Positions 8,725 to 64,000 of a stretch of DNA of 64,000 bases are shown piece by piece (position 1 is the first letter of the stretch; each line of letters opens with the position of its first letter). Below the pieces are notes generated by a model. That model did not search any database. It had not been told where the DNA came from and saw only the letters and a list, made by a program, of their open reading frames with translations. The translations under genes and the position numbers were made by a program. The DNA comes from Acidimicrobiia bacterium (GTDB lineage Bacteria; Actinomycetota; Acidimicrobiia; Spongiisociales; UBA11373). The stretch spans positions 26,284 to 90,283 of the forward strand of contig JBKKBI010000084.1 in NCBI GenBank assembly GCA_046714175.1, read 5' to 3'.

Positions 8725-9434
8725 GCACCGCCGTCACGATCTTCCCCTTGCCGGGGATTCCCGAGATCGCCGTCGGCGATGACCTGCCGGCATTGCTGCT
8801 GGCGGCGATGCAGCGGGCCGGATGCTCCCCGACCCCCGGCGATGTGCTGGTCGTGACCCACAAGGTGGTCTCCAAAGCTGAGGGGGCAGTCGTAACCCTC
8901 GAGGGGGAGGACGAGGAACTCGCCTACCGGAACCTGGTGTTGAGCGAAGCGAGGGACGTGATCCGGCGCCGCGGTGACCTCGTGATCGCCCGCACCAAGC
9001 ACGGGTTCATTTGCGCCAACGCCGGTATCGATCGTTCCAACGCCGCCCCGGGGACTGCGGTCCTGCTCCCCCACGATCCCGATCGCTCGGCGCATGGGAT
9101 TCGCCTGGCGATCCGCGCCGCCACCGGCGTGGATCTCGCCGTGATCATTTCCGATACCTTCGGCCGCCCCTGGCGCCGGGGACTGACCGATGTCGCCATC
9201 GGCGTGTCGGGGATGCTCCCGATTCACGATCTGCGTGGCACGGTCGACGCCACCGGGCGAGAGTTGCACGTGACCGAAGTCGCGGTGGCCGACGAGATCG
9301 CCGCCGCCGCCGACCTGGTGATGGGAAAGGCTGCGGCGATCCCGGCGGCATTGGTGCGCGGAGTGGTGGTGCCAGCCGGTGAGGGGCGGGCAGCGGACCT
9401 GGTGCGGCCGGACGCGGAAGACTTGTTCAGGTAG
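8721..9434 (+). CDS. cofE: Coenzyme F420-0:L-glutamate ligase CofE (FbiB N-terminal-type, no nitroreductase domain)
   Basis: The ATG at 8721 overlaps the cofD stop. The product (237 aa) carries CofE family motifs (HKVVSKAEG, ICANAGID). The listed ORF from 8241 is an upstream in-frame extension that runs across cofD. Confidence 0.8.
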   Translation: MSTAVTIFPLPGIPEIAVGDDLPALLLAAMQRAGCSPTPGDVLVVTHKVVSKAEGAVVTLEGEDEELAYRNLVLSEARDVIRRRGDLVIARTKHGFICANAGIDRSNAAPGTAVLLPHDPDRSAHGIRLAIRAATGVDLAVIISDTFGRPWRRGLTDVAIGVSGMLPIHDLRGTVDATGRELHVTEVAVADEIAAAADLVMGKAAAIPAALVRGVVVPAGEGRAADLVRPDAEDLFR

Positions 9435-9517
9435 GGGCGAGGGGCGAGGGGCGAGGGGATGACAGATGGCAGATGGCAGATGGCAGATGGCGAGGGGCGA
9501 GAGGCTAGGGGCCCCGG
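9434..9517. repeat. Phased heptanucleotide tandem array, 12 units: GGGGCGA x3, GGGGATG, ACAGATG, GCAGATG x3, GCGAGGG, GCGAGAG, GCTAGGG. It begins on the last base of the cofE stop TAG.
   Basis: Read directly. All units share one 7-nt phase. The same unit types recur at 18498-18532. Confidence 0.9.
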
Positions 9518-18497: not shown

Positions 18498-18532
18498 GCA
18501 GATAGGGGCGAGGGGCGAGGGGCGAGGGGGTC
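18498..18532. repeat. Phased heptanucleotide array GCAGATA, GGGGCGA x3, GGGGGTC, starting directly after the accA3 stop TAG and reaching the stop of the convergent DMT gene
   Basis: Read directly. It has the same unit types as the 9434-9517 array. Confidence 0.85.

Positions 18533-20748: not shown

Positions 20749-20752
<4 letters not shown>
19400..20752 (-). CDS. lpdA: Flavoprotein disulfide reductase family protein, LpdA-like (NAD(P)H quinone reductase type lacking the CxxxxC pair)
   Basis: The internal ATG at 20752 ([18 protein letters not shown]) overlaps the mutase stop (ATGA). It has FAD and NAD Rossmann motifs but only a single Cys in the redox site (LLDCIPSK), as in M. tuberculosis LpdA Rv3303c. 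The 684-aa listed ORF is an N-terminal artefact that overlaps the upstream gene. Confidence 0.75.
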
Positions 20753-22335
<1,583 letters not shown>

Positions 22336-22415
22336 CGGTACACTCGGAGTGGTCGGTAGGGGATGCTAACCCGGGGAACCCGGCCGCTCCCACGGACGTC
22401 TCCCTAGGACTCGGC

Positions 22416-24881: not shown

Positions 24882-24923
24882 GCAGTTACCAGTTACCGGT
24901 TGCCAGTTAGGCATCCGGCATCC
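24882..24923. repeat. Phased heptanucleotide array GCAGTTA, CCAGTTA, CCGGTTG, CCAGTTA, GGCATCC x2, starting directly after the PBP stop TAG
   Basis: Read directly. GGCATCC is a circular permutation of the ATCCGGC unit at 50775-50823. Confidence 0.8.
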
Positions 24924-46125: not shown

Positions 46126-47765
<1,640 letters not shown>

Positions 47766-47769
<4 letters not shown>

Positions 47770-48044
47770 CCTGGCTCCTCTGGAGTCGGACCCACCGTAA
47801 CCGGGGATCCGCAGTTGGGACACGGGGCCACTGCCACTGCACCGACGATGAACGAAAACCCACATCGCGGGCAGGCGATGCGCGGCGACGGAGCCTCGGG
47901 GATCGGCGTCGGTGGCGGTGAGGCGGGGGCGATCGGTTCCGCCGCGGCACGCACGTCGTTCACCGTCCCGCAGACCGGGCAGGAGTGCCGGCCCGGGCCG
48001 GGAACGTCGAAGTTGGAGCGGCACCGCCCACAGCGGACGATCAT
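47766..48044 (-). CDS. Small double zinc-ribbon protein (92 aa, four CxxC pairs)
   Basis: CGRC...CPVCG and CPRCG...CPNCG motifs, translationally coupled (ATGA and GTGA overlaps) between a membrane-anchored protein gene and the mutase gene. Confidence 0.5.
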
Positions 48045-48454
48045 CCGGGTTCCTCGTCGGCCGGAGCGCCCACCGCACCAATGGAGACCAGGTAATCGAC
48101 ATCGGCCGCGATCACCTCAGCGATGTCGCGAGCCTCGACGTCGATCTCATTTTCCACGGCACGCTGCAGGATGTGATCGATCGCGTCGCCACTGCCCAGG
48201 ATCGCGCGCTGTCCCGCGCGCGGCGCGACTACCTGCTGGTATTCGATCTGCCACTCGAGAATCCGTCGCACCAGGCTTGTCCTCACGCGCAACGCGGTGG
48301 CGGGTTCGAGTCCGGCGTGGGCGAATCGGGCAGCGTCATCGAGCACATAAACCGGATCTGCGTCCCGGCGCCGCCGCCACCCCTGCCAGGTGAAGGCGAG
48401 AACGATCATCCCGAGGACCAAGACGAGGATCGAGCCACCAACCAGGGCACTCAT
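48041..48454 (-). CDS. Hypothetical membrane-anchored protein (137 aa)
   Basis: An N-terminal TM helix followed by a soluble domain. It is the first gene of the three-gene coupled set. Confidence 0.45.
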   Translation of the reverse strand: MSALVGGSILVLVLGMIVLAFTWQGWRRRRDADPVYVLDDAARFAHAGLEPATALRVRTSLVRRILEWQIEYQQVVAPRAGQRAILGSGDAIDHILQRAVENEIDVEARDIAEVIAADVDYLVSIGAVGAPADEEPG

Positions 48455-49747: not shown

Positions 49748-50683
49748 ATGCAATGGGCACTGATGACGGAACCGCACACCGGCATGAGCTACGACACCCT
49801 CCTCGCGATGGCGCAGTTCGCCGAACGGTCGGGGCTTGATGCCTTCGCTCGGTCCGATCACTTCTTCGCCGACCGCATCGACCGTCCCAATGCGACCGAC
49901 GCCTTCGCGACGCTCGCCGGGCTGGCGCGGGACACGAACCGCGTCGAACTGGTGGTGCTGGTGAGCCCCATCACATTCCGTCACCCCGGTGTGATTGCCA
50001 AGTCCGCGGCGACGATCGATGAGATGTCGGCCGGCCGGTTTGCCCTCGGCGTAGGCACCGGATGGATGGAGGCCGAGCACGTAAAGTTCGGTCTCCCCTT
50101 CCCGGCCCTGGGAGAGCGCTTCGCCCGCTTGGAGGAGTCATTCGCCTACCTGCACCACGCACTGGGCCGCGCCTCCGGTCCTTACGCCGGGGACTACTAC
50201 GCCCTCGAGAACTCCGACGTGTATCCCCGACGGCCCGGAGTCCGTCTGATCGTCGGCGGGACCGGGGAGCGGCGCACTCCCCGCCTCGCCGGGACGTACG
50301 GGGACGAGTACAACTTCACCCTTCGCCCGGAAGCCGACCCGAAAGTGCGCATTGGCCGGGTGCGGGCGGCCGCGGAACGCGCCGGACGCGATCCCGGGTC
50401 GATCACTCTCTCGGTGATGACCCAGGTCGTGACCGGGGAGACCCCGCCCGAGTTCGCCCGCAATTTGGCCCGCGTGGCGGCCGCCGATCCCTGGGGTTCC
50501 GATCCCACCACCATCGAAAAGCACCATCGCGGCCGCGGCCTCCCCATCGGCACCGGGCCCGAGGTTCGGGAGCGCATCGCCCAGATCGCCGCCCTGGGCG
50601 TCTCCCGGATCTACGTCCAGCACTTCGGTCCCTATGAGACGGACTTGCTCGAGGAGACCTTCGGAGTGTTGCGCGGCGAGTGA
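49748..50683 (+). CDS. LLM class (luciferase-like) F420-dependent oxidoreductase
   Basis: A TIM-barrel LLM family protein (FARSDHFF, LGVGTGW). Consistent with the cofD/cofE genes in the window. Confidence 0.75.
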   Translation: MQWALMTEPHTGMSYDTLLAMAQFAERSGLDAFARSDHFFADRIDRPNATDAFATLAGLARDTNRVELVVLVSPITFRHPGVIAKSAATIDEMSAGRFALGVGTGWMEAEHVKFGLPFPALGERFARLEESFAYLHHALGRASGPYAGDYYALENSDVYPRRPGVRLIVGGTGERRTPRLAGTYGDEYNFTLRPEADPKVRIGRVRAAAERAGRDPGSITLSVMTQVVTGETPPEFARNLARVAAADPWGSDPTTIEKHHRGRGLPIGTGPEVRERIAQIAALGVSRIYVQHFGPYETDLLEETFGVLRGE

Positions 50684-50823
50684 GATAACAGATAACAGAT
50701 AACAGATAACAGATAACAGATAACAGATAACAGACAGCAGGCAGCAGGCAGCAGACAGCAGACAGCAGACCAATCGATCGAGTCCGGCATCCGATATCCG
50801 GCATCCGGCATCCGATATCCGGT
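50684..50823. repeat. Phased heptanucleotide tandem array, 20 units: GATAACA x6, GACAGCA, GGCAGCA x2, GACAGCA x2, GACCAAT, CGATCGA, GTCCGGC, ATCCGAT, ATCCGGC x2, ATCCGAT, ATCCGGT, ATCCGGC. It begins directly after the TGA of the LLM gene.
   Basis: Read directly. It runs 140 nt in a single 7-nt phase and is the largest of five such loci. Confidence 0.95.
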
Positions 50824-50869
50824 ATCCGGCACTTGGGTACCACTCCGGAGCCTCTTATCCTTCCCTCCC

Positions 50870-51625
50870 GTGCCCGCAACCCCCCTGCTCGTCATCGACG
50901 ACCTCCACGCCGCCGCTGCTGGGGTCCCGATCCTGCGTGGGGTCGATCTCACGATCGAACCCGGGGAAACCCACGCCCTGATGGGTCCGAACGGCTCGGG
51001 CAAGTCCACCCTGGGCAATGTCCTGATGGGACACCCCGGGTATCAGGTCATGTCGGGGCGGATCCTGTTCAAGGGGGAAGATGTCACCACCTGGACCCCG
51101 GATGCCCGGGGGCGCGCCGGCATGTTCCTTGCCTTCCAGTACCCCGAAGAGATCCCCGGAGTGACCGTGGTGAACTTTCTCCGCACCGCGCTGTCGAATC
51201 GTACGGGCACGGAGTACACCGTCCTCGAGCTCCGCCTCAAGGTGGCGGACACCATGAAGACGCTCGGCATTGACGCCGGGTTTGCCGACCGCTACTTGAA
51301 CGAAGGCTTCTCCGGGGGCGAGCGCAAGCGGAACGAGGTACTGCAAATGGCGGTACTCGAACCCGAGCTGGCGATCATGGACGAGACCGACTCCGGCCTG
51401 GACGTGGATGCACTCAGGATCGTCGCCGAGGGGGTCACCCGACTGCAGTCGCCGACCCGCGGTTTCCTCGTCATCACTCACTATCAGCGGCTCCTCGAGT
51501 ACATCACTCCCGACCGCGTGCACGTGTTTGTCGCCGGACGAATCGTCGAGTCGGGGGGTGAGGAGTTGGCCCGCCGCATCGAGCTCGAGGGCTACGACAC
51601 CTTCCGCATCGGAACCGGGTCGTGA
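50870..51625 (+). CDS. sufC: Fe-S cluster assembly ATPase SufC (copy 1)
   Basis: Walker A GPNGSGKST, the ABC signature LNEGFSGGERKR, and the SufC-type C-terminus. The start codon is GTG. Confidence 0.85.
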   Translation: MPATPLLVIDDLHAAAAGVPILRGVDLTIEPGETHALMGPNGSGKSTLGNVLMGHPGYQVMSGRILFKGEDVTTWTPDARGRAGMFLAFQYPEEIPGVTVVNFLRTALSNRTGTEYTVLELRLKVADTMKTLGIDAGFADRYLNEGFSGGERKRNEVLQMAVLEPELAIMDETDSGLDVDALRIVAEGVTRLQSPTRGFLVITHYQRLLEYITPDRVHVFVAGRIVESGGEELARRIELEGYDTFRIGTGS

Positions 51626-51821
51626 CAAGCACCGCTCCCACCTACCCGCAAGGGGATTTCCGGTTGCCGGTTTCCAGTTGCCGGGTCTTGGCAGTGGGCG
51701 CACCTCGGCGCGGCTCTCGCCCATCTCTCGTCGGCCATCGCCACGCGTCCGGCGAGTTCTGCATTGCGCATTGTGAATGGCGCCCGGTCACTGCCATTGG
51801 ACTGTCGCGCCAGGTGGCAGC

Positions 51822-53054
51822 GTGAAGACCGACCTCTCCCACCTCCGCGCCGACTTCCCCATCCTGAGCCGCGAGGTCAACGGCAAGCCGCTCGTCTATT
51901 TGGACAGCGCCGCCACGACCCAGAAGCCGTTACAGGTCCTCGAGGCGATGGATGACTACTACCGATTGCACAACGCCAACGTTCACCGCGGCGCCTACCG
52001 CCTGGCGGAGGAGGCGACCGGGCTGTACGAAGGAGCCCGGAACAAGGTGGCCCGGTTCATCAACGCCGCCGCGCCCGAAGAGCTGGTGTTTACCCGCGGT
52101 ACCACTTCCAGCATCAATGCCATCGCCTACGGCTGGGGGTTGTATCACCTGCGGCCGGGGGATCGCATCGTCCTCACCACAATGGAGCACCACGCCAACA
52201 TCGTGCCGTGGCAACTGATCACCCGCCACACCGGTGCCGAGCTGGTCTATCTGCCGTTGGGTGTGGACTTTCTGGTCGACGTCTCCGCGCTGGACGCCAT
52301 CGTCGATGAGAGGGTGAAGATCGTCGCCGTTTCCGGAATGTCGAACGTCCTCGGGTCGATCGGTCCGCTCACCGCCGCGGTGGCGGCGGCCCGTGCTGTG
52401 GGGGCAATAACTGTTGTCGATGCCGCCCAGCTTGTCCCGCACCATCCCACCGACGTGCAGGCGCTAGGCGCCGATTTCGTCGCCTTCAGCGCTCACAAGA
52501 TGCTGGGGCCCACCGGCATCGGGGCGCTGTGGGGCAGGCGCGATCGACTGGAGGAGATGGAACCCGCCGAAGGCGGCGGAGAGATGATTCGCGACGTACA
52601 ACTCCATGCCTCGACATGGGCCGACCTCCCCCACAAGTTCGAAGCAGGAACCCCCCCGATCGCCGAGGCGGTGGGCTTCGGAGCAGCCGTGGACTATCTC
52701 GCGGCCGTCGGAATGGACAATGTGCGTCGCCACGAGCAGGAACTCACCCGCTATGCGCTCGATCGGTTGGCGGAGATCCCCGACCTCAAGGTCTACGGTC
52801 CCACCGACACCGCGCTCCGCGGGGGCGCCGTCTCATTCACGCTGGCGGACATCCATCCCCACGATCTGGCGACGATCCTCGACCAGGAAGGCGTGGCGGT
52901 GCGGGCAGGTCACCACTGCGCCAAGCCGCTGATGCGGCACCTCGATGTCGCGGCAACTGCCCGCGCCTCGTTCTACATGTACAACGTGCCGGAGGAAGTG
53001 GACATCCTGGTAAAGGCACTGCATGAGGCGAGGAGGCTGTTCGGTGTCGCTTGA
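51822..53054 (+). CDS. sufS: Cysteine desulfurase SufS (class V aminotransferase, group II)
   Basis: YLDSAATTQKP, the PLP-Lys region SAHKMLGPTGIG, and the active-site Cys in HHCAKP. GTG start at 51822. Confidence 0.85.
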   Translation: MKTDLSHLRADFPILSREVNGKPLVYLDSAATTQKPLQVLEAMDDYYRLHNANVHRGAYRLAEEATGLYEGARNKVARFINAAAPEELVFTRGTTSSINAIAYGWGLYHLRPGDRIVLTTMEHHANIVPWQLITRHTGAELVYLPLGVDFLVDVSALDAIVDERVKIVAVSGMSNVLGSIGPLTAAVAAARAVGAITVVDAAQLVPHHPTDVQALGADFVAFSAHKMLGPTGIGALWGRRDRLEEMEPAEGGGEMIRDVQLHASTWADLPHKFEAGTPPIAEAVGFGAAVDYLAAVGMDNVRRHEQELTRYALDRLAEIPDLKVYGPTDTALRGGAVSFTLADIHPHDLATILDQEGVAVRAGHHCAKPLMRHLDVAATARASFYMYNVPEEVDILVKALHEARRLFGVA

Positions 53055-53547
53055 TGAGTTGTATCGGCAGGTCATCCTCGACCATTACCGCACCCCGCGG
53101 CGCTCCGGGCGGCTGGCCGCTCCGACCGCGCACGCTGATGGCACCAACCCATTGTGCGGCGACGAGATCGCGCTGGACCTGGTGGTGGCGGACGGCAAGG
53201 TGACCGACGCCGCGGTCACCGGGCGGGGATGTTCGATCAGTCAAGCCTCGGCCTCGATGATGGCAGACCGAATCGTGGGCCTGACCCTGGCGGAAGTCGA
53301 TGAGCTCATCCACCGCATCAAGCGCCTGCTCGCCATCGAGGAGGGAGACCCCGGGCTGGATCCAGAGCGTCCCGGCGCGACCCTCGGCGACCTGGAGTCA
53401 CTCGCCGGCGTGCGCCGCTTTCCGGTGCGGGTGAAGTGCGCCGATCTCCCCTGGACCACGCTGGAACAGGCGCTGTCGGAAACGGGCAATCGGCTATCCC
53501 CGGGATCCGGATTCGGAACGGCACCAGCCACCAGACCTAGCCGCTGA
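53044..53547 (+). CDS. sufU: SufU/IscU-like sulfur acceptor scaffold protein
   Basis: SLDELYRQVILDHYRTPRR, NPLCGDEI and GRGCSISQASASMM motifs. The GTG start overlaps the sufS stop; an ATG at 53023 is an alternative. Confidence 0.8.
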   Translation: MSLDELYRQVILDHYRTPRRSGRLAAPTAHADGTNPLCGDEIALDLVVADGKVTDAAVTGRGCSISQASASMMADRIVGLTLAEVDELIHRIKRLLAIEEGDPGLDPERPGATLGDLESLAGVRRFPVRVKCADLPWTTLEQALSETGNRLSPGSGFGTAPATRPSR

Positions 53548-53609
53548 CCGTGCATTGCCGCGCCGAAATAGGTGCAACAGAATCTGCCGCACCGGGGTTG
53601 TGACTCCAC

Positions 53610-54515
53610 ATGACGACCGGAACGCGGACCGCTCTCACCGGCCAGGGCACCCATACCGAAGCCTTCGCCGCCCGAGACTGGACACTGCTTGCCGGCATCG
53701 CATTGATCTGGGGATCGTCGTTCCTCTTCATGGCGATCGGCCTCGATCACTTCGAACCGGGCGTGGTCACCCTCGCACGACTGGTGCTCGGTGCGGGAGC
53801 ACTCGCCCTCGTTCCCGCAGCTCGAACCCGTATCGACCCCGTGGATCGGATGCGAGTGGCAGCTCTCGGGATCGTATGGATGGCCATTCCGCTATCGCTG
53901 TTTCCCATCGCCCAACAATGGATCGACTCATCGGTGGCGGGAATGATCAACGGCGCGGTCCCGATCACGACCGCGGCCTGGGCCACCCTGTTGATGCGCC
54001 GTCTACCCGGCCGCAAACAACTGCTGGGGATCACTATCGGGTTCGCCGGAATGGTGGCGATTTTTCTTCCTGAGCTCAGCGACTCCAGCGCAACGGCGCT
54101 CGGCACCGTGCTGCTACTCCTCGCGATCACGGGTTACGGATTGTCCTCCAACATGGCGGTGCCCCTGCAGCAACGCTACGGCGCCGCCCCGGTTCTGCTC
54201 CGAGCGCAATTGGCTGCACTGGTGGTGGTAGCGCCTATCGGACTACTGCAACTGGGCTCCTCGTCATGGGCCTGGGACTCAGCGCTGGCGATGGTGCCCC
54301 TCGGTGTGCTCGGCACCGGCCTGGCTCTGGTATTGATGACCAACTTGGTTGGCCGGGTGGGCAGCACCCGTGGTTCGGTGGCGATCTACTTCGTGCCGAT
54401 AGTGGCGATCATCCTCGGGGTGGTAGTGCGCGACGAGGCGATTCACCCCATCGCCCTGGTGGGAATGCTCCTGGTGCTCATCGGAGCCTGGGTGACGTCG
54501 CGACGCGAGAGCTAG
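53610..54515 (+). CDS. DMT (EamA-like) family transporter
   Basis: A 301-aa protein with 10 TM helices. Confidence 0.65.
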   Translation: MTTGTRTALTGQGTHTEAFAARDWTLLAGIALIWGSSFLFMAIGLDHFEPGVVTLARLVLGAGALALVPAARTRIDPVDRMRVAALGIVWMAIPLSLFPIAQQWIDSSVAGMINGAVPITTAAWATLLMRRLPGRKQLLGITIGFAGMVAIFLPELSDSSATALGTVLLLLAITGYGLSSNMAVPLQQRYGAAPVLLRAQLAALVVVAPIGLLQLGSSSWAWDSALAMVPLGVLGTGLALVLMTNLVGRVGSTRGSVAIYFVPIVAIILGVVVRDEAIHPIALVGMLLVLIGAWVTSRRES

Positions 54516-54635
54516 CGCCACGACCCGCGATCGCCAGCGAACCCAGTCGGCTCTGGCTGAGGAGGCAGGGTGCATTCAGCGACCGGCTGGCCATCGCCGC
54601 ACGCCATCGCGGTCGGGCCAATAGCCAACCGCGAC

Positions 54636-56024
54636 CTACTCCGCCACCCCGCCTTCGGTCATCGGATAGAGGTCGAGAAGGCGATCGAGTTCGGCCGCGG
54701 GCAGGCCGGTGACCTCGAGGGCCACCTCCCGCACCCCTTTTCCAGTGGCGAACGCCTTGTGGGCGATCTCTGCGGCCTTGTCGTATCCGATCTTGGGCGC
54801 CAGCGCGGTGACGATCGTGATGTTCTGGTCGAGCAGCATGGCAGCCCGCTCCGTATTCGCCTGCAACCCCTCCACGCATCTCTCGCGAAAGGCATCGGAC
54901 ACCGCTCCGATCAGCTCGGCGGCTTCGATCAGATTGTGGGCCAACACCGGCATCATCACGTTCAGCTCGAAGTTGCCGTTGGCGCCCGCCCAGGCGATCG
55001 CGGTGTCGTTGCCGATCACCTGGGCGACGACCTGCATCACCGACTCAGCCATCACGGGATTGACCTTCCCCGGCATGATCGACGAGCCCGGCTGAGTGGC
55101 GGGAAGGCTCAGCTCGCCGATGGCGGTGCGTGGTCCCGATCCGAGCCAGCGAATGTCGTTGGCCACCTTGAAGAGGGACACAGCAACCGTCTTGAGAGCG
55201 GCGCTGGCGAATACGGCCGCGTCTTTGGAAGCCTGCGCTTCGAAGTGGTTGTCCGCTTCGCGAAACGGATATCCGGTGCGCGCGGCGAGTTGAGCGATTA
55301 CCGCCGCGGCAAATCCGGGCGGCGAATTGATCCCGGTGCCGACCGCGGTCCCGCCCAGCGCGAGCTCCTCGAGTCCGGGCAGGACCAGCTGGAGTCGCTG
55401 CACTCCGAGTCGCACCTGGGCGGCGTATCCGCTGAACTCCTGGCCGAGCCGTATCGGAGTGGCATCCATGAGGTGGGTGCGCCCCGCCTTGACGATGGGG
55501 TCGAACTCGGTGGCCTTGGCCTCGAGCGCCGCGGCAAGTCGGGACAGGGCCGGAATGGTGTCCTCCCGGATCGCCGTCACTGCGGCCACATGGATAGCCG
55601 TCGGGATCACGTCGTTGGACGATTGGCCGGCGTTGACGTGGTCGTTGGGATGGACCTTCTCGCTCCCCCGAGGTTCACCGAGCAACTCGCCGGCCCGATT
55701 GGCGATGACCTCGTTGGCATTCATGTTGGATGACGTCCCCGACCCGGTCTGGAATACGTCGAGAACGAACTGGGCATCGTGGACACCGGCTACGACCTCA
55801 TCGGCCGCGCTTCGGATCGCCGCCGCGATGTCCGCTGCCACGATCCCCCGGCGCCCGTTCTCCTCCGCGGCCGCCGACTTGATGAGACCGAGAGCCGCGA
55901 TCATGCGGCGGCCCAGCCGGAGCCCGGAGATGGGGAAGTTCTCCACTGCCCGCTGGGTCGAGGCGCCGTAATATGCGTCGTCGGGCACCTGCATCTCACC
56001 CATCGAGTCACGTTCGATTCGCAT
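54636..56024 (-). CDS. fumC: Class II fumarate hydratase / aspartate ammonia-lyase family enzyme (likely FumC)
   Basis: The GSSIMPGKVNP signature. The start is taken at the internal ATG 56024 (MRIERDSMGEMQVP). The upstream 66 codons of the listed ORF are rejected. Confidence 0.8.
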   Translation of the reverse strand: MRIERDSMGEMQVPDDAYYGASTQRAVENFPISGLRLGRRMIAALGLIKSAAAEENGRRGIVAADIAAAIRSAADEVVAGVHDAQFVLDVFQTGSGTSSNMNANEVIANRAGELLGEPRGSEKVHPNDHVNAGQSSNDVIPTAIHVAAVTAIREDTIPALSRLAAALEAKATEFDPIVKAGRTHLMDATPIRLGQEFSGYAAQVRLGVQRLQLVLPGLEELALGGTAVGTGINSPPGFAAAVIAQLAARTGYPFREADNHFEAQASKDAAVFASAALKTVAVSLFKVANDIRWLGSGPRTAIGELSLPATQPGSSIMPGKVNPVMAESVMQVVAQVIGNDTAIAWAGANGNFELNVMMPVLAHNLIEAAELIGAVSDAFRERCVEGLQANTERAAMLLDQNITIVTALAPKIGYDKAAEIAHKAFATGKGVREVALEVTGLPAAELDRLLDLYPMTEGGVAE

Positions 56025-56094
56025 GCCGCCGCTCCTTCGCGCTGAGCTCAGGGTAGGCCGAGCACACCGGTGCGGGCCGGGACCATTAGGCCGG

Positions 56095-56853
56095 TCACAG
56101 GCCCCTGAGGAATGAGTCGGTTTCGGGGACGACCCCATCGCGGTCGCGGCGCATCCCGTCATAACCCTCGGCGTCGAGGCGGTCTGCCAGGCTCCGGTCC
56201 CCGGAGGCGACGATCTGGCCATCGAGCATCACATGTACCCGATCCACTTCCAGATGGCGCAGCACCCGGGTGTAGTGGGTGATGACCAGGATGCCCAGCC
56301 GCGGACTGCGCATCGCCTGGACCGCTTCCGCGGCCTGGCGCACCGCGTCGACGTCGAGCCCCGAGTCCAGCTCGTCGAGGATCGCCATGCGCGGGCCGAG
56401 GGCGAGGAGTTGCGTCATCTCGGATCGCTTCTTTTCTCCCCCGGATAGACCGACGTTGACCGCCCGGTCGAGGAACTCTGCGGTGTCGAGACGAGCGGTC
56501 GCCAACTCGGCGCGGGCCGCCACGCCATCACCACCCGCCGCCGCCATCTCCGCCAGCAGTTCGGCGAGGGTGACCCCCGGGATCTCGACCGGATACTGGA
56601 ACACCTCGAACAGGCCGGCTGTGGCTCGGCTGGCCACATCGAGGCCAAGCAGGTCGACACCACCCACCGTTGCCACCCCCGTTGCCGCGTACCCGGGACG
56701 CCCCATCAGCGCGTGGCACAGCGTCGACTTCCCCGATCCATTGGGACCCATAAGGACGTGCAACTCCCCAAACGGCACGTCGAGATCCACCGCCTTCAGA
56801 ATGTGCAGATCCCCGAGCCGCACGTCCAAGCCGGAAACGTGCAGGGCGTTCAC
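56095..56853 (-). CDS. sufC: Fe-S cluster assembly ATPase SufC (copy 2, divergent paralog)
   Basis: Walker A GPNGSGKST and signature LSGGEKKR. Its start overlaps the Rieske gene stop (ATGA). It is only ~45% identical to copy 1 by eye. Confidence 0.85.
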   Translation of the reverse strand: MNALHVSGLDVRLGDLHILKAVDLDVPFGELHVLMGPNGSGKSTLCHALMGRPGYAATGVATVGGVDLLGLDVASRATAGLFEVFQYPVEIPGVTLAELLAEMAAAGGDGVAARAELATARLDTAEFLDRAVNVGLSGGEKKRSEMTQLLALGPRMAILDELDSGLDVDAVRQAAEAVQAMRSPRLGILVITHYTRVLRHLEVDRVHVMLDGQIVASGDRSLADRLDAEGYDGMRRDRDGVVPETDSFLRGL

Positions 56854-57188
56854 GCCGACTCCTCGTCCTCGGCGACTGGTTCGAGTGTGGTGAACACCTC
56901 ATCACCGGCGATCTCGATCTCGTAGCGCCCCACCGGCCGCGTGGCGGGAAGCGACTGCGGGGCCCCGGTGCGAACGTCGAACTCTGAGCCGTGGCGAGGA
57001 CACTCGACGGTGTGATCGAACAGTTCCCCGTCGGCCAGAGATGCTTCGGCGTGGCTGCACTGATCCCCGATGGCGTACACCGAGTCGCCGATGCGGAAGA
57101 CGGCGATGCGGTGCCCTTCCACCGAGATGCGAACCCCGCGCCCCATGGGTAGTTCGGACAATGCCGCCAGGCGGACCCGGATCATCAC
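56850..57188 (-). CDS. Rieske [2Fe-2S] ferredoxin-like protein of the suf operon
   Basis: The CSH...CPRHG Rieske motifs (CSHAEASL...CPRHGSEF). The internal ATG 57188 overlaps the sufD stop. Confidence 0.75.
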   Translation of the reverse strand: MMIRVRLAALSELPMGRGVRISVEGHRIAVFRIGDSVYAIGDQCSHAEASLADGELFDHTVECPRHGSEFDVRTGAPQSLPATRPVGRYEIEIAGDEVFTTLEPVAEDEESA

Positions 57189-58471
57189 GACTCCACCCGG
57201 GAGTACTTGTCCATCATCGCGGCGCGCAACAACGGTTCGAGCCGACGCTCGCCGAACCGCATCAGCGCCTCCTCGAAGAAGCCCTTCACCTGGAGACGAT
57301 CCGCCCTGGTCTGCTCCAGGCCGCGGCTCATCAGGTAGTAGCGCTGCTCCTCGTCCAGCGGCCCCACCGCCGAGCCATGGCCACACCGGACGTCGTCCGC
57401 AAGGATCTCCAAGTTCGGCACGGAGTGGGCCTCGGCCCCGTCGGAGAGAACCAGATTGCGGTTGGTCTGATGGGCGCTGGTCTTCTGGCCCTCCGGTTCG
57501 ATGCGGATCAACCCGGTGAACACGGAACGGCTATTCCCCGCCACAGCGCCCTTGAGGAACATCGCCGACGTGGTGCCACGAGCGGCGTGGCGCAGGAAGT
57601 AGCGATAGTCAAGGGTTTGCTCCGCGTCGCCGAAGTAGGCCCCGACGATCTCCGCCGCCGACCCGTCGCCGATCAGGTCGACGGTGAGGTGCAGCCGCGA
57701 GTACCGCCCTCCCAACCCCGCCTCGGCCAGACCGACCGTGGCATCCCGGCCGGCGGCATAGTGGTGACGCGCCACGGCCGCGGTGGAGTCGCCCCACTGT
57801 TGTACGACCGTGAGCGCAACCCGAGCCCCGTCACCGGCCGCGATCTCGAACCGCGGCACGACGAGCAGCGGGACTCCATCGGGTGAGCGCTGATGCACCA
57901 CCACGGAAATCTGGGACGATGACCCGGCCACGATGCGCACCCGGGGCATGACCGCCGAATCGGGAGTCACCGCCTGCAGGTCCACCAATACCGGTTCGGT
58001 GGGGCGCTCCCCCTTACCCACCACGATCACAACTCCGTCGGCGGCAAAGGCCTCGTGGAGCGCCTCGAAGCGGTCCGTGATCGGCGGCGGATCGCCTGGC
58101 TCGGAACCATGGTGCCATGACTCCACGCTCACCCCGGGCGCGGATTTGGCGGCAACCGTGTAGCCGTCGACATTCACCGCGACGGCCATGGCCGGGATCG
58201 GAAGGATGGTGGCGAGCGGAGTACCCGGCGCCTCGGGGATCCCGAACTCTCCCAGGTCGACATCGGGATGGACGTAACGCCAGTTCTCGGCGCGTTCCGA
58301 CGGCATCTCCATTGCGGCGAAGGCTTCCCAACCGGCGGCGGCACGCTTGCGATGGCCGCCCTTGATGGCAGCCGTCACGCGGTCGTGAGCAGTTCGATCG
58401 ATGGGGAGCACGGGAGAAAAACCTCGGCTCGACGGAGCTCGCATGGTATCGGTCGCGAGGCCACTACCCAA
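57185..58471 (-). CDS. sufD: SufB/SufD family Fe-S cluster assembly protein (SufD-like)
   Basis: The C-terminal beta-helix region matches SufBD family motifs (HQTNRNLVLSDGAEAHSVPNLEILADDVRCGHGSAVG...YYLMSRGL). The ATG at 58444 is an alternative start. Confidence 0.8.
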   Translation of the reverse strand: MGSGLATDTMRAPSSRGFSPVLPIDRTAHDRVTAAIKGGHRKRAAAGWEAFAAMEMPSERAENWRYVHPDVDLGEFGIPEAPGTPLATILPIPAMAVAVNVDGYTVAAKSAPGVSVESWHHGSEPGDPPPITDRFEALHEAFAADGVVIVVGKGERPTEPVLVDLQAVTPDSAVMPRVRIVAGSSSQISVVVHQRSPDGVPLLVVPRFEIAAGDGARVALTVVQQWGDSTAAVARHHYAAGRDATVGLAEAGLGGRYSRLHLTVDLIGDGSAAEIVGAYFGDAEQTLDYRYFLRHAARGTTSAMFLKGAVAGNSRSVFTGLIRIEPEGQKTSAHQTNRNLVLSDGAEAHSVPNLEILADDVRCGHGSAVGPLDEEQRYYLMSRGLEQTRADRLQVKGFFEEALMRFGERRLEPLLRAAMMDKYSRVES

Positions 58472-59162
58472 GATCGCGGATGACGCGGCGCACGTCGGCC
58501 AACACCGCGTCGAGCATCTCTTCCGTGAGTTTGCCCGTGAAGGTGTTCTGCTGGCTGGGGTGATAGCTGGCGATCACCACCGGTGGCGCCGGTGCGCCCG
58601 GTCGGGGCCCGGGTTCGGCTACCGCGCCGTGAGCGAACCGGGGACGGGGGCGCGGCATCAGGAACCCGGCAGCGGTGTAGAACCGGAGGATTGTCTCCCA
58701 GGCGAGTCCACCGAGGCACAGCACCACTCGGACCCGCGGCAGCAGTGCGATCTCTTCCTCGAGCCAATGCCGGCACTCGGCTCGCTCCGCGGTGGTCGGT
58801 TGGTTGGCGGGCGGAGCGCAGCGCACCGCGGCGGTGATCCAGCAGTCGCGCAGCTGCATCCCGTCATCGCGGTGGGTCGAGACCGGGCGAGTGGCGAATC
58901 CGGCCCGGTGCAGAGCCCGAAACAGCCAGTCCCCCGACCGATCGCCGGTGAACATGCGCCCGGTCCGGTTGGCGCCGTGGGCGGCGGGCGCCAGACCAAC
59001 CACGAGGAGACGAGCGGCAGGGTCGCCAAAACCCGGCACCGGACGCCCCCAATACTCCTCGGTGGTCCACGGCGGGCGGCGATCGCGGGCGACCTGCTCC
59101 CGCCAGGCGACCAGGCGCGGGCAGGCGCGACACGCCACGATCCGGTCCCGCAGATCTTCCAC
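58464..59162 (-). CDS. Uracil-DNA glycosylase, family 4/5-type (Fe-S containing UDG)
   Basis: The N-terminal [10 protein letters not shown] motif and the C-terminal HPSQQN-like motif (ASYHPSQQN). Confidence 0.75.
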
Positions 59163-59371
59163 TCGGTCACCCTAGGGTTGGGGACAAGTCCGGGGATTCG
59201 CCTGTGAACAACTCTCCGGGAACCTGCAGGCGGAGCCCCCGCGGGGCCTGCGCGGCGTGGCTGCGGAGGTTCCCACCTACCTGTCCACAGGCCCCTGTGG
59301 ATTGCGGTTGCGGCCCCTTCGCCCCCGGTGATACCGTTGCCGCCGCCCGACCTGCTCGGAAAGGATGCTCT

Positions 59372-60304
59372 TTGGCCCGGAGGCTGCGAGAAGCCGCTCA
59401 CCCATCCGACGGCATCGGGATGTACCTGGAGTCGGTGGCGGCTCACGGCCTGCTGACCGCCGAGGACGAGGTGCGCCTGTCCCGAGTGATGGAGTCGGGA
59501 CACAAGGCTCAGCAGGTGATCGACGCTGGGGGCAAGATCACGCCCACCGACCGTATCCGGTTGTTTCGGGCGATTCACGCCGGGGACGAGGCCAAGGCCC
59601 AGTTCATCCGCTCCAACCTGCGTCTGGTGATCTCCATCGCCAAGCGCTACAGCGGACGCGGTCTGGATCTACTCGACCTGGTCCAGGAGGGAAACCTCGG
59701 TCTGATCCGGGCCGTGGAGAAGTTCGACTGGCGCAAGGGCTTCAAGTTCTCCACGTACGCCACGTGGTGGATCCGGCAGGCGATCACGCGCGGTCTGGGT
59801 AATCAGGGACGCACCATCCGGCTGCCGGTGCACATGGTCGATGTGGTGCGCACGGTTCAAGAGACGGTGCTCGGCCTTCAGGAGCGGTTGCATCGCCGCC
59901 CCACCATGGAGGAGATCGCCCAGGCATCGGGACTCGACAGGGAGCGGGTCGAGCTCGCTCTCACCGCTCCGAGTGACACGGTCTCCCTGGAGCGGCCCGT
60001 CGGGACCGAAGGCGACGCCGCGTTGGGGGATTTCGTCGAGGACGAGGCCGCGCTGGATCCGTTCGAGGCGGCCGCGGGCGCTTCGACCCGACATCACATC
60101 GACACCGCGATGTCGATGCTGGAGGATCAGGAGCGCCAGGTGATCCTGCGCCGCTATGGCCTCGACGGACGCACACCACGCACCCTCTCCGATGTCGGCA
60201 AGGAGTTCGAACTCACCCGCGAGCGGATTCGCCAGATCGAGGGCAGGGCGCTGGCCAAACTTCGCCACCCCTCCAGCGGCTTCGATCTGGAGACCCTGCT
60301 CTGA
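59372..60304 (+). CDS. RNA polymerase sigma-70 family factor (group 1/2-like: regions 1.2, 2, 3, 4 present)
   Basis: Region 2.4-type [34 protein letters not shown], region 4.2 ([29 protein letters not shown]). Proposed TTG start at 59372 with AAGGA 6 nt upstream. The listed ATG at 59204 would add a Cys/Pro-rich 56-aa extension. Confidence 0.8.
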
Positions 60305-60352
60305 GTCCAAGAGTCAGGGTGATGGCCCGCACTGGCTTACAGCTGCCAGCTG

Positions 60353-61018
60353 CTACACGTCGAACAACCGCGGGGCTCTGCCTTCCAGGCCGCGCAGTAG
60401 GTCATAATCGACCTCGACCCATCCGATGCCGCGGGCCGCGGCGAGCACGCGCGCCTGGGGGGTCACTTTCGTCGCGGCCAGGATTCCCCGCACCGGTGCC
60501 AGCGTGGCATCACGGTTCAGCCGTTCCAGGTACCGGGTGAGCTGTTCGACCCCGTCGATCTCGCCGTGCCGCTTGATTTCCACCGCCACCACTTGCCCGG
60601 ACGGATCGCGGCACAGCAGGTCCACGGGTCCCAGGTCGGTGTGATACTCCCGCTGCAGGACCTCCAGGCCCGCTTCGATGGACGCGGCCCGATCGGCGAG
60701 CAGCTCCTGGAGGTTGCGCTCCACACCGTCCTTGGCCAGACCCGGATCGACCCCCAGGTCGTAGTCGGCGTCAGCCAACATCTCCTCGAGCACGATGACA
60801 AGGGATTCGCCCTTGGCGTTGGTCACCACCCAGCGATCCGGCCCTTGCTCGAGATGGTTGGGGGCGTTCATCCAGTTGAGCGGTTTGTACGCCCCACCGT
60901 CAGAGTGGACCGTGACACACCCATCGGCCTTGACCATGATCAAGCGCACCGCCGACGCCAAATGCGCCGAGAGCCGCCCGGTGTATTCGACGGTGCAGCG
61001 CGCCACCACGATCCGCAT
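60353..61018 (-). CDS. nucS: Endonuclease NucS (EndoMS, mismatch-specific)
   Basis: The internal ATG 61018 gives [20 protein letters not shown]...[23 protein letters not shown], the canonical NucS N-terminus, plus the RecB-like C-terminal domain. Confidence 0.85.
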
Positions 61019-61119
61019 GAAGCGGGAGGCTAGAAGGGCGGATGACGATTGGCCATCGGCCAGAGAGGTGGGCAATGGAAGGCGGCTGCGCAATTCGTCT
61101 GCGGTCTGCCGTCTCCGAC

Positions 61120-61935
61120 TCAATCCAACAAATTCTTCAGCGTCGCGCGAAAGTCTTCGGCCAGCTCCGGCCTGGATAGCCCGACAACCACCGTGGCTTC
61201 GAGCAGACCAGCGGGGTGGCCGACATCCAGCAGATCGTCGCCGACAATCAGACCCAGGGCGCTATTGCGGCGGGCGGCGCGGTCGATGGCATCGGTCAAC
61301 TGGATCTCCCCAAGGCGGCCCGGCCGAACCGCGGCCAGGTCCCCGAAGATCTCCGCGCCGAACACGTAGCGGCCAAGCAACCCGAGATCCGAGGGAGCGG
61401 CATCTCCAGGTTTTTCAACCGCCGCTGTGACATCGACCACGTCTCCGGTGACGTTCTCACCGATCGTGACGATCCCATAACGGTCGAAGAATTGCGAGGC
61501 GACCCTGCGGAGAGCCACCGCGGGACGACCGTCGTAGAGGCGGACCAGCCGCGGAGTAAAGGCGTGCCCGGGGCGCGGAAACATGTCGGAGAGCAGGCAC
61601 ACGAATGGACGACCGGCTACCGCCTCCTGGGCACGCATCACGGCGTCGCCGAGACCCCGAGGTTCCGGTTGCAGCACTGTCCGGAAAGTCACCCCCTCCA
61701 GACCGGCGATGGGGGCGCCCTCGGTGAAGTGGGCGATGACCGGATCGCCAGGCCGGTCGTCGACCACGAGGATCACTTCGGTCACCCCCGAAGCGACAGC
61801 TTCCTCCACCACGTACTGGATCACCGGCCGGTCGACCACGGGAATCAACGGCTTGGGCACCACGCGGGTGGCGGGCTGCATGCGTGACCCGACGCCGGCG
61901 CATGGGATCACGGCAACGGTGATCGGCGCGGGCAT
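61120..61935 (-). CDS. galU: UTP--glucose-1-phosphate uridylyltransferase-like sugar nucleotidyltransferase (GalU family)
   Basis: [39 protein letters not shown], the GalU signature. Confidence 0.75.
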
Positions 61936-62019
61936 GGAAATACGCTACCGCGGCGCCCTGCCCATTGCCCGTTACCCGGGCCGACCGCCCATCGTCCCTG
62001 GCACATGGCCAATGGCCGC

Positions 62020-62502
62020 TCAGATCACGTTGTCACTTTTCCCTGACATCTGTCGCACCACGTCGGTCTGTCCGGTGTGATACGTGTCGTGGAAGTAGCC
62101 GAACATCACCTGGGCGCCCCGGGGGGCGGTGCGCCCCTCTCCGGAGGGCAGCTCGGCGGCCATCGAGGCATCGTCGGCCGCGGCCAGGGCGGCCTCGAGG
62201 CGCTTCTCGGTGCGGTCCAGCGCGGCGAGAAGGTCGGCCAGGGCGAGTACCCCGGGACCATCGCCGGTGATCGGTTCACTCTCGCGGCGGTAGCGCTCGG
62301 CTCGCGGCCCCAGAACAGGTTCGCCACCCAGGACACCGAGGATGTCGTCCCGGGTTGCCACGATGTGGCCCACCACCCAGTTGAAGCAGTTGGTGTTGTA
62401 ACCAGATTGGCGGAGGGCATCCTCCTCGGTGAGCCCGGCGGCGTGGGCGATGATCAGCCGCTGGTTGCGGCGAAACCCTCGCGCCAAGAGATCGGGGAGC
62501 AC
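62020..62502 (-). CDS. DinB/YfiT-like metal-dependent hydrolase superfamily protein (DinB_2)
   Basis: A 160-aa protein with a four-helix bundle and conserved His triad positions (HAAG...H..., HDTYHTGQ). Confidence 0.55.
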   Translation of the reverse strand: MLPDLLARGFRRNQRLIIAHAAGLTEEDALRQSGYNTNCFNWVVGHIVATRDDILGVLGGEPVLGPRAERYRRESEPITGDGPGVLALADLLAALDRTEKRLEAALAAADDASMAAELPSGEGRTAPRGAQVMFGYFHDTYHTGQTDVVRQMSGKSDNVI

Positions 62503-62607
62503 AAACCGAGACTAATCGCCGAACTCGAACGACACGGCCCCGCCACCACGAACTCGAAAGTAGGTTCGACTCCGACTGACTGCTGACCGCGTGGGGTGGT
62601 TCGGCCT

Positions 62608-64000
62608 TCAGCCGACCGAACCCTCCATCTGCAACTCGATCAACCGATTGAGCTCAACCGCGTACTCCATGGGGAGCTCTTTCACTATCGGCTCGATGAA
62701 GCCGGCGACGATCATGGCGGTGGCCTGTTGGTCGGTGAGACCGCGGCTCATCAGATAGAACAACTGGTCGTCGCCGACCTTGGACACCGTCGCCTCGTGC
62801 GCGATCTGGGCGTCGGCCTCTTCGATCTCCATGTAGGGATAGGTGTCGGAGCGGCTCTTGTCGTCGAGGATCAAGGCATCACAACGCACGAACGACTTGA
62901 CCTCCTCGGCTCCGCTCTCCACCCGAACCAGGCCGCGGTAGCCACCGCGTCCTCCGTCCTTGGAAATCGACTTGGAGGTGATCAGGGACGTGGTGCGCGG
63001 GGCGGCGTGAACGATCTTGGCCCCGGCATCGAGATGCTGGCCCTTGCCGGCAAACGCGATCGAAAGCACCTCGCCATGCGCCCCCTCTTCCATGAGCCAT
63101 ACCGCCGGATACTTCATCGTGAGCTTGGAGCCGAGGTTGCCGTCGATCCACTCCATGGTGGCGTTGCGATAAGCCGCGGCACGCTTGGTGACGAGGTTAT
63201 AGACGTTGTTCGACCAGTTCTGAATCGTCGTGTAGCGGCAACGACCGCCCGCCTTGACCACGATCTCGACCACCGCAGAGTGCAGCGAGTCGCTGGAATA
63301 GGTCGGGGCTGAGCACCCTTCGACGTAGTGGCAGAAGGCCCCTTCATCGACGATGATCAGCGTGCGCTCGAATTGCCCCATGTTCTCGGCGTTGATCCGG
63401 AAGTAAGCCTGCAGGGGCTGATCGACGTGGACTCCAGGCGGCACGTAGATGAACGATCCGCCCGACCAGACCGCCGAGTTGAGGGCGGCAAACTTGTTGT
63501 CGTTCGGAGGAATGATCGTTCCGAAGTATTGACGCACCAAGTCGGGGTACTCACGGACCGCGGTGTCCATGTCGCAGAACAAGACGCCAAGTTCGGCGAG
63601 GTCCTCGCGGTTGCGGTGGTAGACCACCTCCGACTCGTACTGGGCGGTGACGCCCGCAAGGTACTTGCGTTCCGCCTCCGGGATTCCCAGCTTCTCGTAA
63701 GTGTTCTTGATCGACTCCGGGACCATGTCCCAGTCCTTTACCTGCCCCGCGGTCGGCTTGATGTAGTAGTAGATGTCGTCGAAGTCGATGTCGACCAGCG
63801 ATCCGCCCCCGCCCCACAGAGGGATCGGCTTGCGGAGAAAGCGCTGATACGACTTGAGTCGGAAGGCGAGCATCCACTCGGGCTCGCCCTTCATCGCCGA
63901 CATCTCGCGGATGATCGACTCGTTGAGCCCCTTCTTGGGCTTGAAAACGTAATCCTCGACGTCGGACCACCCCAGCTGGTATTTCCCGATGTCGATGTCG
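62608..64000 (-). CDS. sufB: Fe-S cluster assembly protein SufB; 5' end lies outside the window
   Basis: [19 protein letters not shown]...IDFDDIYYY and a full SufB core. The frame stays open to the 3' window edge (upstream codons ...[32 protein letters not shown]). Confidence 0.9.

Follow-up and report, generated by a model that had tools for sequence, protein, structure and literature searches.

A suf locus of Acidimicrobiia encodes two distinct SufC ATPases alongside a single sufB and a single sufD

Members of the class Acidimicrobiia abound in soils, oceans and activated sludge. We analysed a 64,000-nucleotide stretch of the genome of one such bacterium (contig JBKKBI010000084.1, positions 26,284 to 90,283; hereafter the window), the last part of which carries genes of the SUF pathway, which assembles iron–sulfur (Fe-S) clusters. 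In the model SufBC2D complex, SufB and SufD each carry a copy of the same SufC polypeptide. The window encodes two different SufC ATPases, designated SufC1 and SufC2, together with one SufB and one SufD; statements on suf copy number refer throughout to the 64-kb window and to loci of about 20 kb from relatives. Gene identities were taken from an open reading frame listing and from Pfam and NCBIfam profile searches of the window, and the suf and neighbouring genes named in the original prediction, a note made from the sequence alone, were recovered at or near the places given there (Table 1).

SufB, SufD, SufS and SufU each exceed the curated cutoffs of their families, so that the SufU-type SUF set is complete, and on all sequence criteria tested the region belongs to the SufU-type SUF family. 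Its suf genes are distributed over three blocks, each about the size of a transcription unit. On the reverse strand, sufD, a Rieske gene and sufC2 are joined by overlaps of 1 and 4 nucleotides (nt), according to the gene calls on a Logan contig (L036) that encodes an identical SufC2; sufC1, sufS and sufU are encoded on the forward strand. Neither sufC adjoins sufB, which is followed instead by dinB, a galU-like gene and nucS and is separated from sufD by 4,137 bp, in agreement with the predicted spacer of about 4 kb. The predicted content of this spacer also stood for the dinB-family, nucS, sigma-70 and uracil-DNA glycosylase (UDG) genes, while the gene named galU is only GalU-like and falls below the GalU cutoff. 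No further copy of sufB, sufC or sufD is present in positions 1–46000 of the window, and no sufE is detectable in the window.

The two SufC proteins are 48% identical over 226 amino acids (aa), close to the 45% that had been estimated by eye, and both lie above the curated SufC equivalog cutoff (TIGR01978). In alignments both keep the Walker A lysine, the Q-loop glutamine, the signature motif, the Walker B Asp-Glu, the D-loop and the H-motif. Reference SufCs from Microbacterium, Streptomyces, Tsukamurella, Nonomuraea, Listeria, Azospirillum, E. coli and Dehalococcoidia were used for comparison, the labelled reference suf loci being taken from chromosomes in a plasmid collection and from E. coli K-12. 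SufC1 is 49–59% identical to reference SufCs of Actinomycetes, Chloroflexota, Bacillota and Proteobacteria (48% to that of Collinsella), with 52–59% identity to those of Actinomycetes, Dehalococcoidia and Listeria, and it retains the canonical β6 sequence F-L-A-F-Q and the signature FSGGE. SufC2 reaches 42–49% with the same references.

By these sequence measures SufC1, the copy linked to sufS and sufU, is the canonical SufC, and SufC2, the copy linked to sufD, is the divergent one. This reverses the original prediction, which had taken the sufS/sufU-linked copy to be divergent and had singled out its place beside SufS and SufU as unusual; the odd copy is the SufD-linked SufC2. Nor is SufC1 a generic ABC (ATP-binding cassette) ATPase, as had also been considered; of the two proteins it fits the SufC model better (320.7 versus 240.6 bits against TIGR01978). 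Acidimicrobiia metagenome-assembled genomes (MAGs) label both proteins simply ‘SufC’ or ‘ABC transporter ATP-binding protein’, an annotation practice that this finding corrects.

SufC2 also evolves faster than SufC1; on shared contigs it is 66–68% identical to the window copy, compared with 80–82% for SufC1. Between the window and one MAG (L005), identity is 90% for SufB, 79% for SufC1, 61% for SufC2 and 52% for SufD, the rates of SufC1 and SufB pairing off against those of SufC2 and SufD. An AlphaFold2 model of SufC2 (predicted local distance difference test score 87.8) has known SufC structures as its top Foldseek matches in the PDB (2D2F, 2D2E, 5AWF_C and 2ZU0_C; template modelling (TM) scores 0.82–0.83 for 2D2F, 5AWF_C and 2ZU0_C).

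Several sequence features set the SufC2 clade apart. There is a one-residue deletion in the segment after the Walker A helix, the helical subdomain is shortened by 5–8 aa, and the motifs read LSGGE for FSGGE, DE[IL]D for DETD and, in the D-loop, DAV for DAL. In the subclade to which the window belongs, β6 reads F-E-x-F-Q in place of F-L-A-F-Q, and position 82 (E. coli numbering), which precedes the Q-loop glutamine by three residues, has changed from Leu or Met to Glu (of 14 sequences, 11 have E, two Q and one L, and none of about 90 other SufCs has E). The α3 region is altered as well. β6, α2/α3 and the Q-loop region are described as the surface through which SufC contacts SufD or SufB (PMC6006206), so that the changes peculiar to SufC2 lie within the region reported to touch its partners.

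SufC2 further carries a C-terminal extension of about 14 residues, predicted to be disordered, that consists of an acidic linker ending in D-[SD]-F-L-x-G-L-COOH. The window protein ends in DSFLRGL, and its C-terminal codons occupy positions 56095–56136. A strict form of the tail motif is present in 86 of 120 window-clade SufC2 sequences and a loose form in 102 (P0001–P0120), whereas none of 120 SufC1 sequences has it and, among 147 other SufC representatives, the strict motif is absent and the loose one occurs twice. SufC2-like proteins of the Acidimicrobiales branch carry a related [DE]PF-type tail in 113 of 119 cases (P0404–P0522; for example PFTDPFGDPFADLLT), of the form PFxDPFADLL.

The sufD–Rieske–sufC2 unit recurs on more than 20 independent Acidimicrobiia contigs from at least two orders and from different samples and assemblers, including long contigs of 1.6–3.7 Mb (1.59, 2.2 and 3.74 Mb). 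A SufD scan of one genome per species places the window in the class Acidimicrobiia, the closest MAG having a SufD 76% identical to that of the window. On those SufC2 contigs that reach far enough upstream (L003–L008, L036, L038, L039, L041, L118–L122, L124, L126 and L128–L132), sufD, the Rieske gene where present and sufC2 overlap by 1–4 nt or are directly adjacent. Wherever the contig suffices, sufC1–sufS–sufU is convergent to the sufD unit (L003, L005, L118, L129 and L130; partially L004 and L039–L041), and sufB lies upstream of the sufD unit where the contig is long enough. The layout is kept in two MAGs (L003 and L005) even though their SufD shares only about 52% identity with that of the window, and it is also found on four metagenome contigs (L038–L041) and on the 1.59-Mb contig (L118). 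Beyond sufC1, relatives have the same luciferase-like and acyl-CoA dehydrogenase genes.

Wider searches extended this picture. A metagenome scan with SufC2 yielded 80 loci, four of which belong to the SufC2 clade; the others are canonical sufB–sufC–sufD–sufS operons and formed a contrast set. When 1.84 billion cluster representatives were searched, three among the best 150 were clearly SufC2-like, and several more distant representatives share the SufC2 hallmarks, again in the context sufD–Rieske–sufC. The family around one of these distant representatives (P0154) comes from MAGs of Acidimicrobiaceae, Acidimicrobiales and Candidatus Aldehydirespiratoraceae, many of its members on contigs of 3–5 Mb. 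At two such loci (L129 and L130) the order is sufB, one or two small genes, sufD, the Rieske gene if present and the sufC2-like gene, with sufC1–sufS–sufU convergent a few kb away; in the second, from a Candidatus Aldehydirespiratoraceae MAG (L130, 8700–10747), the SufC2-like gene directly follows sufD and there is no Rieske gene.

The two-SufC layout with inverted sufC1–sufS–sufU is therefore found in at least two Acidimicrobiia orders and is old, not a recent break. This class-wide occurrence is solid, and both SufCs are retained across the class while SufD identity drops to about 37%. The comparison of gene order that had been proposed in the original prediction accordingly finds the same split in related genomes, as an ancestral condition. 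A chimeric MAG assembly, or the recent horizontal gain of one sufC, has next to no probability in our view. Although the window stems from a metagenome-type lineage and the GC fraction of the sufC1 region is slightly lower (0.63–0.65 versus 0.66–0.69), the same layout stands on all these independent contigs, those of 1.59, 2.2 and 3.74 Mb included, and SufC1, SufS and SufB have no foreign nearest neighbour.

In Actinomycetes the typical order is sufB–sufD–(Rieske)–sufC–sufS–sufU (bioRxiv 10.64898/2026.09.25.754312), and the window indeed departs from this operon in the way that had been described. SufC2 keeps the upstream adjacency of the operon (sufD–Rieske–sufC) and SufC1 its downstream adjacency (sufC–sufS–sufU). 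The layout is most simply derived by duplication, inversion and insertion: sufC would have been duplicated, perhaps in tandem, in an operon of the actinobacterial type; a single inversion of sufC1–sufS–sufU, later or in the same event, would have given the convergent geometry; and later insertions would have entered between sufB and sufD, variable genes being gathered at the junctions. The geometry thus fits the earlier idea of an ancestral operon broken by inversion or insertion, although the event is ancient and class-wide rather than peculiar to this genome.

We built neighbour-joining trees from 24 SufC sequences and from 173 sequences, the latter with 200 bootstraps. Support for the SufC1 clade is 96–100% in both (96–99% in the 173-sequence tree). 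The SufC2 clade is tight and has 100% support in the 24-sequence tree, whereas in the 173-sequence tree the clade extended with P0121 and P0122 has about 20%. Because the backbone stays below 50%, the trees do not separate duplication within the lineage followed by acceleration from a transfer or a more ancient paralogy. Neither copy has a labelled foreign group as its sister, and SufB, SufS and SufC1 are roughly equidistant from their homologues in Actinomycetes, Chloroflexota and Bacillota.

Alignment with the E. coli proteins shows that the window SufB keeps R226, N228, C254, Q285, W287, K303, C405, H433 and E434, and that SufD keeps C358, H360, Y374, R378, G379, A385 and F393 (E. coli numbering). 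The same SufB residues apart from H433, and SufD H360, make up a published list of essential residues (PMC5571166), and further residues were checked from a second source (PMC6006206); all SufB–SufD interface and sulfur-tunnel residues mapped as essential are conserved in the window proteins. Cys358, beside the essential His360, is retained in Acidimicrobiia SufD as it is in E. coli, Azospirillum and Dehalococcoidia, and the three Actinomycetes SufDs examined have Ala at 358 together with a one-residue insertion.

The window has just one SufB and one SufD, and the residues of their interface and those that bind the cluster are intact in both, which argues for one composite machine rather than two. 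Of the two SufC-dependent sub-modules envisaged in the original prediction, the linkage of each SufC to a distinct gene set holds, and it is their operation as separate machines that the single SufB and SufD speak against. We infer, at what we judge to be an even chance, one asymmetric SufB–SufD–SufC1–SufC2 scaffold with SufC1 on SufB and SufC2 on SufD. Given two different sufC genes, it is doubtful that the SufC protomers of a 1:2:1 complex would be identical here. The slowly evolving SufC1, encoded with sufS and sufU, would occupy the SufB side, where the sulfur relay docks, and the faster evolving SufC2, encoded after sufD and the Rieske gene, would occupy the SufD side. Head-to-tail closure driven by ATP would then produce a SufC1:SufC2 heterodimer, and this closure would open the SufB–SufD interface at SufB C405 and SufD H360, as it does in the SufBC2D complex of E. 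coli. There, SufE touches SufB and the SufC next to it (PMC13485665), so that the two SufC positions are already non-equivalent in E. coli, which offers a reason for the ATPase on the SufB side to be encoded with the genes of the sulfur relay.

SufD itself has changed in the window's subclade. It reads Q-R-[YH]-Y-L in 15 of 15 loci, where the two variant positions are [LIM]-F in 58 of 66 other SufDs and in 80 of 82 SufBs, and slightly further on it reads R-L-Q-V-[KRL]-G-F. The SufB of the same genome keeps QLFYL...MIVAGF, just as its SufC1 keeps the canonical β6. The SufD changes probably fall where a SufC2–SufD interface would be.

Some observations nevertheless weigh against this pairing. 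The combination of Glu82 in SufC with Arg372 in SufD arose essentially once, in one subclade, and is not statistically independent covariation. It has exceptions (R with L in L039, R with Q in L007 and L008, and L with Q in L124), and it is absent from the Acidimicrobiales branch, which still has two SufCs. SufC1 shows a change of its own next to the Q-loop, where YPVE has become YPEE, and SufB has no obvious change to match it. Moreover, SufB2C2 and SufC2D2 of E. coli are both known in vitro (PMC6006206), which makes separate homotypic complexes possible, and the genome beyond the 64-kb window may contain additional suf genes.

Two such complexes might act in series, with SufB2(SufC1)2 fed by SufS–SufU and SufD2(SufC2)2 using the Rieske protein as an accessory for iron or electron delivery. 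The clean division into sufD–Rieske–sufC2 and sufC1–sufS–sufU fits this arrangement, as does the finding that archaeal SufB-like proteins function as B2C2 (PMC12584684). We consider it unlikely, given that SufD C358 and H360 and SufB C405, H433 and E434, which face one another across the heterodimer interface, are all kept. The physiological species in E. coli is SufBC2D, the SufC2D2 crystal complex having ‘probably no physiological significance’ (PMC6006206), and in Acidimicrobiales the position of sufB just one or two small genes upstream of sufD–Rieske–sufC2 argues for co-assembly.

The two ATPases could also be interchangeable isoforms kept for expression under different conditions, for example for sulfur relay as opposed to scaffold or stress functions. 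Both have the full ATPase motifs and pass the SufC model, and they are encoded in separate transcription units with differing upstream regions. Interchangeable proteins are not expected, however, to differ systematically in the partner region or to include only one copy that has gained a tail, and their joint retention across the class, at the SufD divergence noted above, fits non-redundant roles. We therefore regard this explanation as quite improbable.

Within the asymmetric scaffold, the acidic SufC2 tail DxFLxGL-COOH could serve as a docking peptide for a further partner, a role that its sequence suggests. Two candidate partners were considered and dropped. Binding to the Rieske protein is contradicted by three loci (L118, L131 and L132) that have a Rieske gene and a tail-less SufC2; one locus (L130) lacks both, and overall the tail does not track the presence of the Rieske gene. 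A β-clamp-binding motif was considered in view of the nucS and dinB neighbours, but the middle hydrophobic position is acidic here, and the idea is weakened further by the absence of the DNA-repair neighbours from the Acidimicrobiales branch.

The window's subclade has the order sufB–dinB–nucS–(sigma, opposite strand)–udg–sufD–Rieske–sufC2–...–fumC, followed by sufU–sufS–sufC1 on the opposite strand, and only in this subclade does the nucS/sigma/UDG insertion separate sufB from sufD. One contig (L119) keeps nucS–sigma–udg–sufD–Rieske–sufC2–fumC, with no sufB or sufC1 within 10 kb. A UDG gene lies upstream of sufD in L001–L005, L007, L008, L039, L118–L120, L124 and L131, and in the window it overlaps the sufD start by 8 nt, so that, from the gene arrangement, part of the assembly machinery appears to share a transcript with an Fe-S client enzyme. 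The cysteine pattern of the window UDG (CxxC...Cx14C) is typical of [4Fe-4S] UDGs, and the UDG–sufD linkage is absent from the Acidimicrobiales branch.

An Fe-S-type UDG immediately upstream of sufD in many loci, nucS nearby and a SufC2 tail resembling a client-docking peptide could together mean that SufD–Rieske–SufC2 has been repurposed away from SufB-dependent assembly, for instance to supply or repair clusters of the DNA-repair neighbours, leaving SufB and SufC1 as a minimal scaffold. We hold this to be highly unlikely. The same two-SufC layout exists in the Acidimicrobiales branch without the UDG/nucS linkage, which marks the linkage as secondary; SufD retains residues that are meaningful only opposite SufB; and the window has no second SufD to serve SufB. 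We thus return to the asymmetric scaffold. Its most specific form, an obligate SufC1:SufC2 ATPase heterodimer in which SufC1 serves the SufB and sulfur-relay side, SufC2 the SufD and Rieske side, and the tail recruits an iron or electron donor or a client, is put forward tentatively, and we judge it somewhat more likely to be wrong than right.

Other genes around the suf units are conserved to varying degrees. The EamA-family transporter gene is a variable filler, missing from most related loci (absent from L003, L005 and L118), and the GalU-like gene is missing at the equivalent position in L003 and L005. The fumarase/aspartase-type lyase gene, whose start was placed 71 nt beyond sufC2 in accordance with the L036 gene call, is conserved directly or closely downstream of sufC2 and is syntenic in L003, L005, L006, L008, L038–L041, L118 and L119. 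Its product scores under the cutoff of TIGR00979 (580.7 bits; cutoff 664.75) and over that of the aspartate ammonia-lyase model NF008909 (554.6 bits; cutoff 510). The sigma-70 gene sits between nucS and the UDG gene, on the strand opposite to both, and its true start is probably downstream of 59204, since homologues have 310–319 aa. A DinB_2 or mycothiol-S-transferase-like gene directly follows sufB in the window, in L003 (342–803) and in L005 (6948–7409); the small gene after sufB in other lineages (100–180 aa) has no detectable similarity to the window dinB. Elsewhere in the window, two genes of the methylmalonyl-CoA mutase family (20752–22365 and 46126–48102, both on the reverse strand) lie about 25 kb apart and are 55% identical over 528 aa.

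Table 1. Features of the suf region, in window coordinates; scores are bits against the named profile, and TRF is Tandem Repeats Finder.
Feature	Position	Strand	Evidence and remarks
Three adjoining heptamer tandem arrays	50683–50831		llm–sufC1 intergenic region, presumed sufC1 promoter region; TRF: AGATAAC ×7.4, CAGACAG ×5.7, TCCGGTA-type ×6.7
sufC1	50870–51625	+	TIGR01978 320.7 (cutoff 212.8); canonical SufC ATPase, first gene of sufC1–sufS–sufU unit
sufS	51777–53054	+	TIGR01979 579 (cutoff 475); Aminotran_5; SufS-family cysteine desulfurase
sufU	53023–53547	+	TIGR01994 141 (cutoff 92.5); zinc-type sulfur-transfer protein; conserved Cys/Asp motifs present
EamA-family transporter	53610–54515	+	Pfam EamA
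Class II fumarase/aspartase-type lyase	54636–~56024	−	Lyase_1 and FumaraseC_C
sufC2	56095–56853	−	TIGR01978 240.6 (cutoff 212.8); divergent SufC paralog
Rieske-type [2Fe-2S] ferredoxin	56850–57185	−	Pfam Rieske; CxH...CxxH ligands intact; 111 aa (L036 gene call)
sufD	57185–58471	−	TIGR01981 232.7 (cutoff 222); sole SufD in window
Family-4-like UDG	58464–59162	−	Pfam UDG; TIGR00758 54.7, below cutoff; CxxC...Cx14C
Group 1/2 sigma-70 (SigB/RpoD-like)	59204–60304	+	Sigma70 r1.2, r2, r3, r4; NF005920 SigB 337, below cutoff
nucS mismatch endonuclease	60353–61123	−	NF002876 323 (cutoff 252)
GalU-like sugar-1-phosphate nucleotidyltransferase	61120–61935	−	NTP_transferase; TIGR01099 170, below cutoff 326.8
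DinB-superfamily gene	62020–62502	−	Pfam DinB_2; directly downstream of sufB
sufB	62608 to beyond 64000	−	TIGR01980 682 (cutoff 346); frame open to window edge, 5′ end outside window

The predicted heptamer array before sufC1 is present, in the form of arrays directly upstream of the gene (Table 1), and these are not conserved upstream of sufC1 in L003, L005 or L118. Further 7-nt tandem arrays occur in the window at 3238–3295, 9433–9491, 18504–18529 and 24883–24909; the units across the window differ (CGGAGAC, AGGGGCG, GATGGCA, CAGTTAC, AGATAAC, CAGACAG and TCCGGTA), and an AGGGGCG ×3.7 array is found twice, at 9433 and 18504. No operator shared by the suf units emerged: the window ends before the sequence upstream of sufB, the sufC1 upstream regions are not conserved among relatives, and that of the window is filled by the heptamer arrays. 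A promoter and terminator scan of the window gave background levels, and an Rfam scan of the window gave zero matches. Upstream of sufB, two loci (L005, 5300–5545, and L118, 2247–2533) have GGTCTTCCCCC(C)ACTCC in common, as well as an ...ATAGTG[GC]AAA... segment closer to the start codon. These shared segments may represent a conserved promoter or operator; no sufR gene was found adjacent to sufB at either locus.

Compared with the actinobacterial SufU-type operon (sufR–sufB–sufD–[Rieske]–sufC–sufS–sufU–sufT in Mycobacterium, Tsukamurella and Nonomuraea), the window has the same protein set of SufB, SufD, Rieske, SufC, SufS and SufU, the same sufD–Rieske–sufC and sufC–sufS–sufU adjacencies and the same essential SufB and SufD residues. 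The Rieske gene holds the same position in the suf operons of Nonomuraea, Microbacterium and Dehalococcoidia. The window differs in having two SufCs rather than one, an inverted sufC1–sufS–sufU and a sufB 4.1 kb from sufD, and neither the window nor the loci of relatives contain a detectable sufR, sufT or sufA. Its SufD keeps Cys358, unlike the Actinomycetes SufDs with Ala at this position. The window is also an exception to the published rule by which sufC and sufB are always encoded together, whereas in Acidimicrobiales sufB belongs to the same gene string as sufC2, parted from it by one or two small genes, sufD and, where present, the Rieske gene. A full-text literature search of incomplete coverage returned no description of two SufCs for one SufB–SufD pair, nor of the SufC2 tail.

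Genomes with multiple sufC genes are also known from Methanosarcina acetivorans (sufC1B1 and sufC2B2) and Paenibacillus polymyxa (sufCDSUB and sufC2D2B2) (PMC10500019, PMC8038749). The extra SufCs of these organisms bring their own SufB, and in part SufD, and thus constitute duplicated systems, whereas one sufB and one sufD are present in the window and in the loci of relatives. The SMS system (SmsCB) likewise combines an ABC ATPase with a SufB-like scaffold, and SmsC chains match the SufC2 model at 30–31% identity. The SmsB model NF052511 (cutoff 650) gives 266 bits for SufB and 71 bits for SufD, and these scores, together with the presence of SufD, rule out identity with SMS.

The EcfA–EcfA′ pair of energy-coupling factor (ECF) transporters (PDB 4HLU) offers a functional analogy, in that paralogous nucleotide-binding subunits sit on different surfaces of an asymmetric partner and close together; 4HLU_C is among the structural matches of the SufC2 model. 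The window system differs in not being a membrane transporter, both of its predicted ATP sites are consensus and neither is degenerate, and its SufC1:SufC2 heterodimer is a proposal.

The closest mechanistic comparison is with E. coli SufBC2D (PDB 5AWF; SufC2D2, 2ZU0), on whose SufC chains the SufC2 model superposes and whose functional SufB and SufD residues are conserved in the window; we assume by analogy that its mechanism, in which ATP-driven SufC dimerisation opens the SufB–SufD interface, would carry over. Because one SufC fills both positions in the model complex, the separate roles of the two ATPase positions are not genetically dissectable there, and the role of SufD is still unclear. 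If the proposed pairing is correct, Acidimicrobiia, with a separate gene for either position, would provide a natural experiment in which each ATPase site, each scaffold–ATPase interface and the tail can be mutated separately; if it is wrong, the two SufCs would be a conserved but ordinary paralogy within a known pathway. Where E. coli places one polypeptide in both positions and relays sulfur through SufE, the window has two distinct SufCs, a SufC2 with a remodelled partner surface and an added tail, and a sulfur relay of the SufU type.

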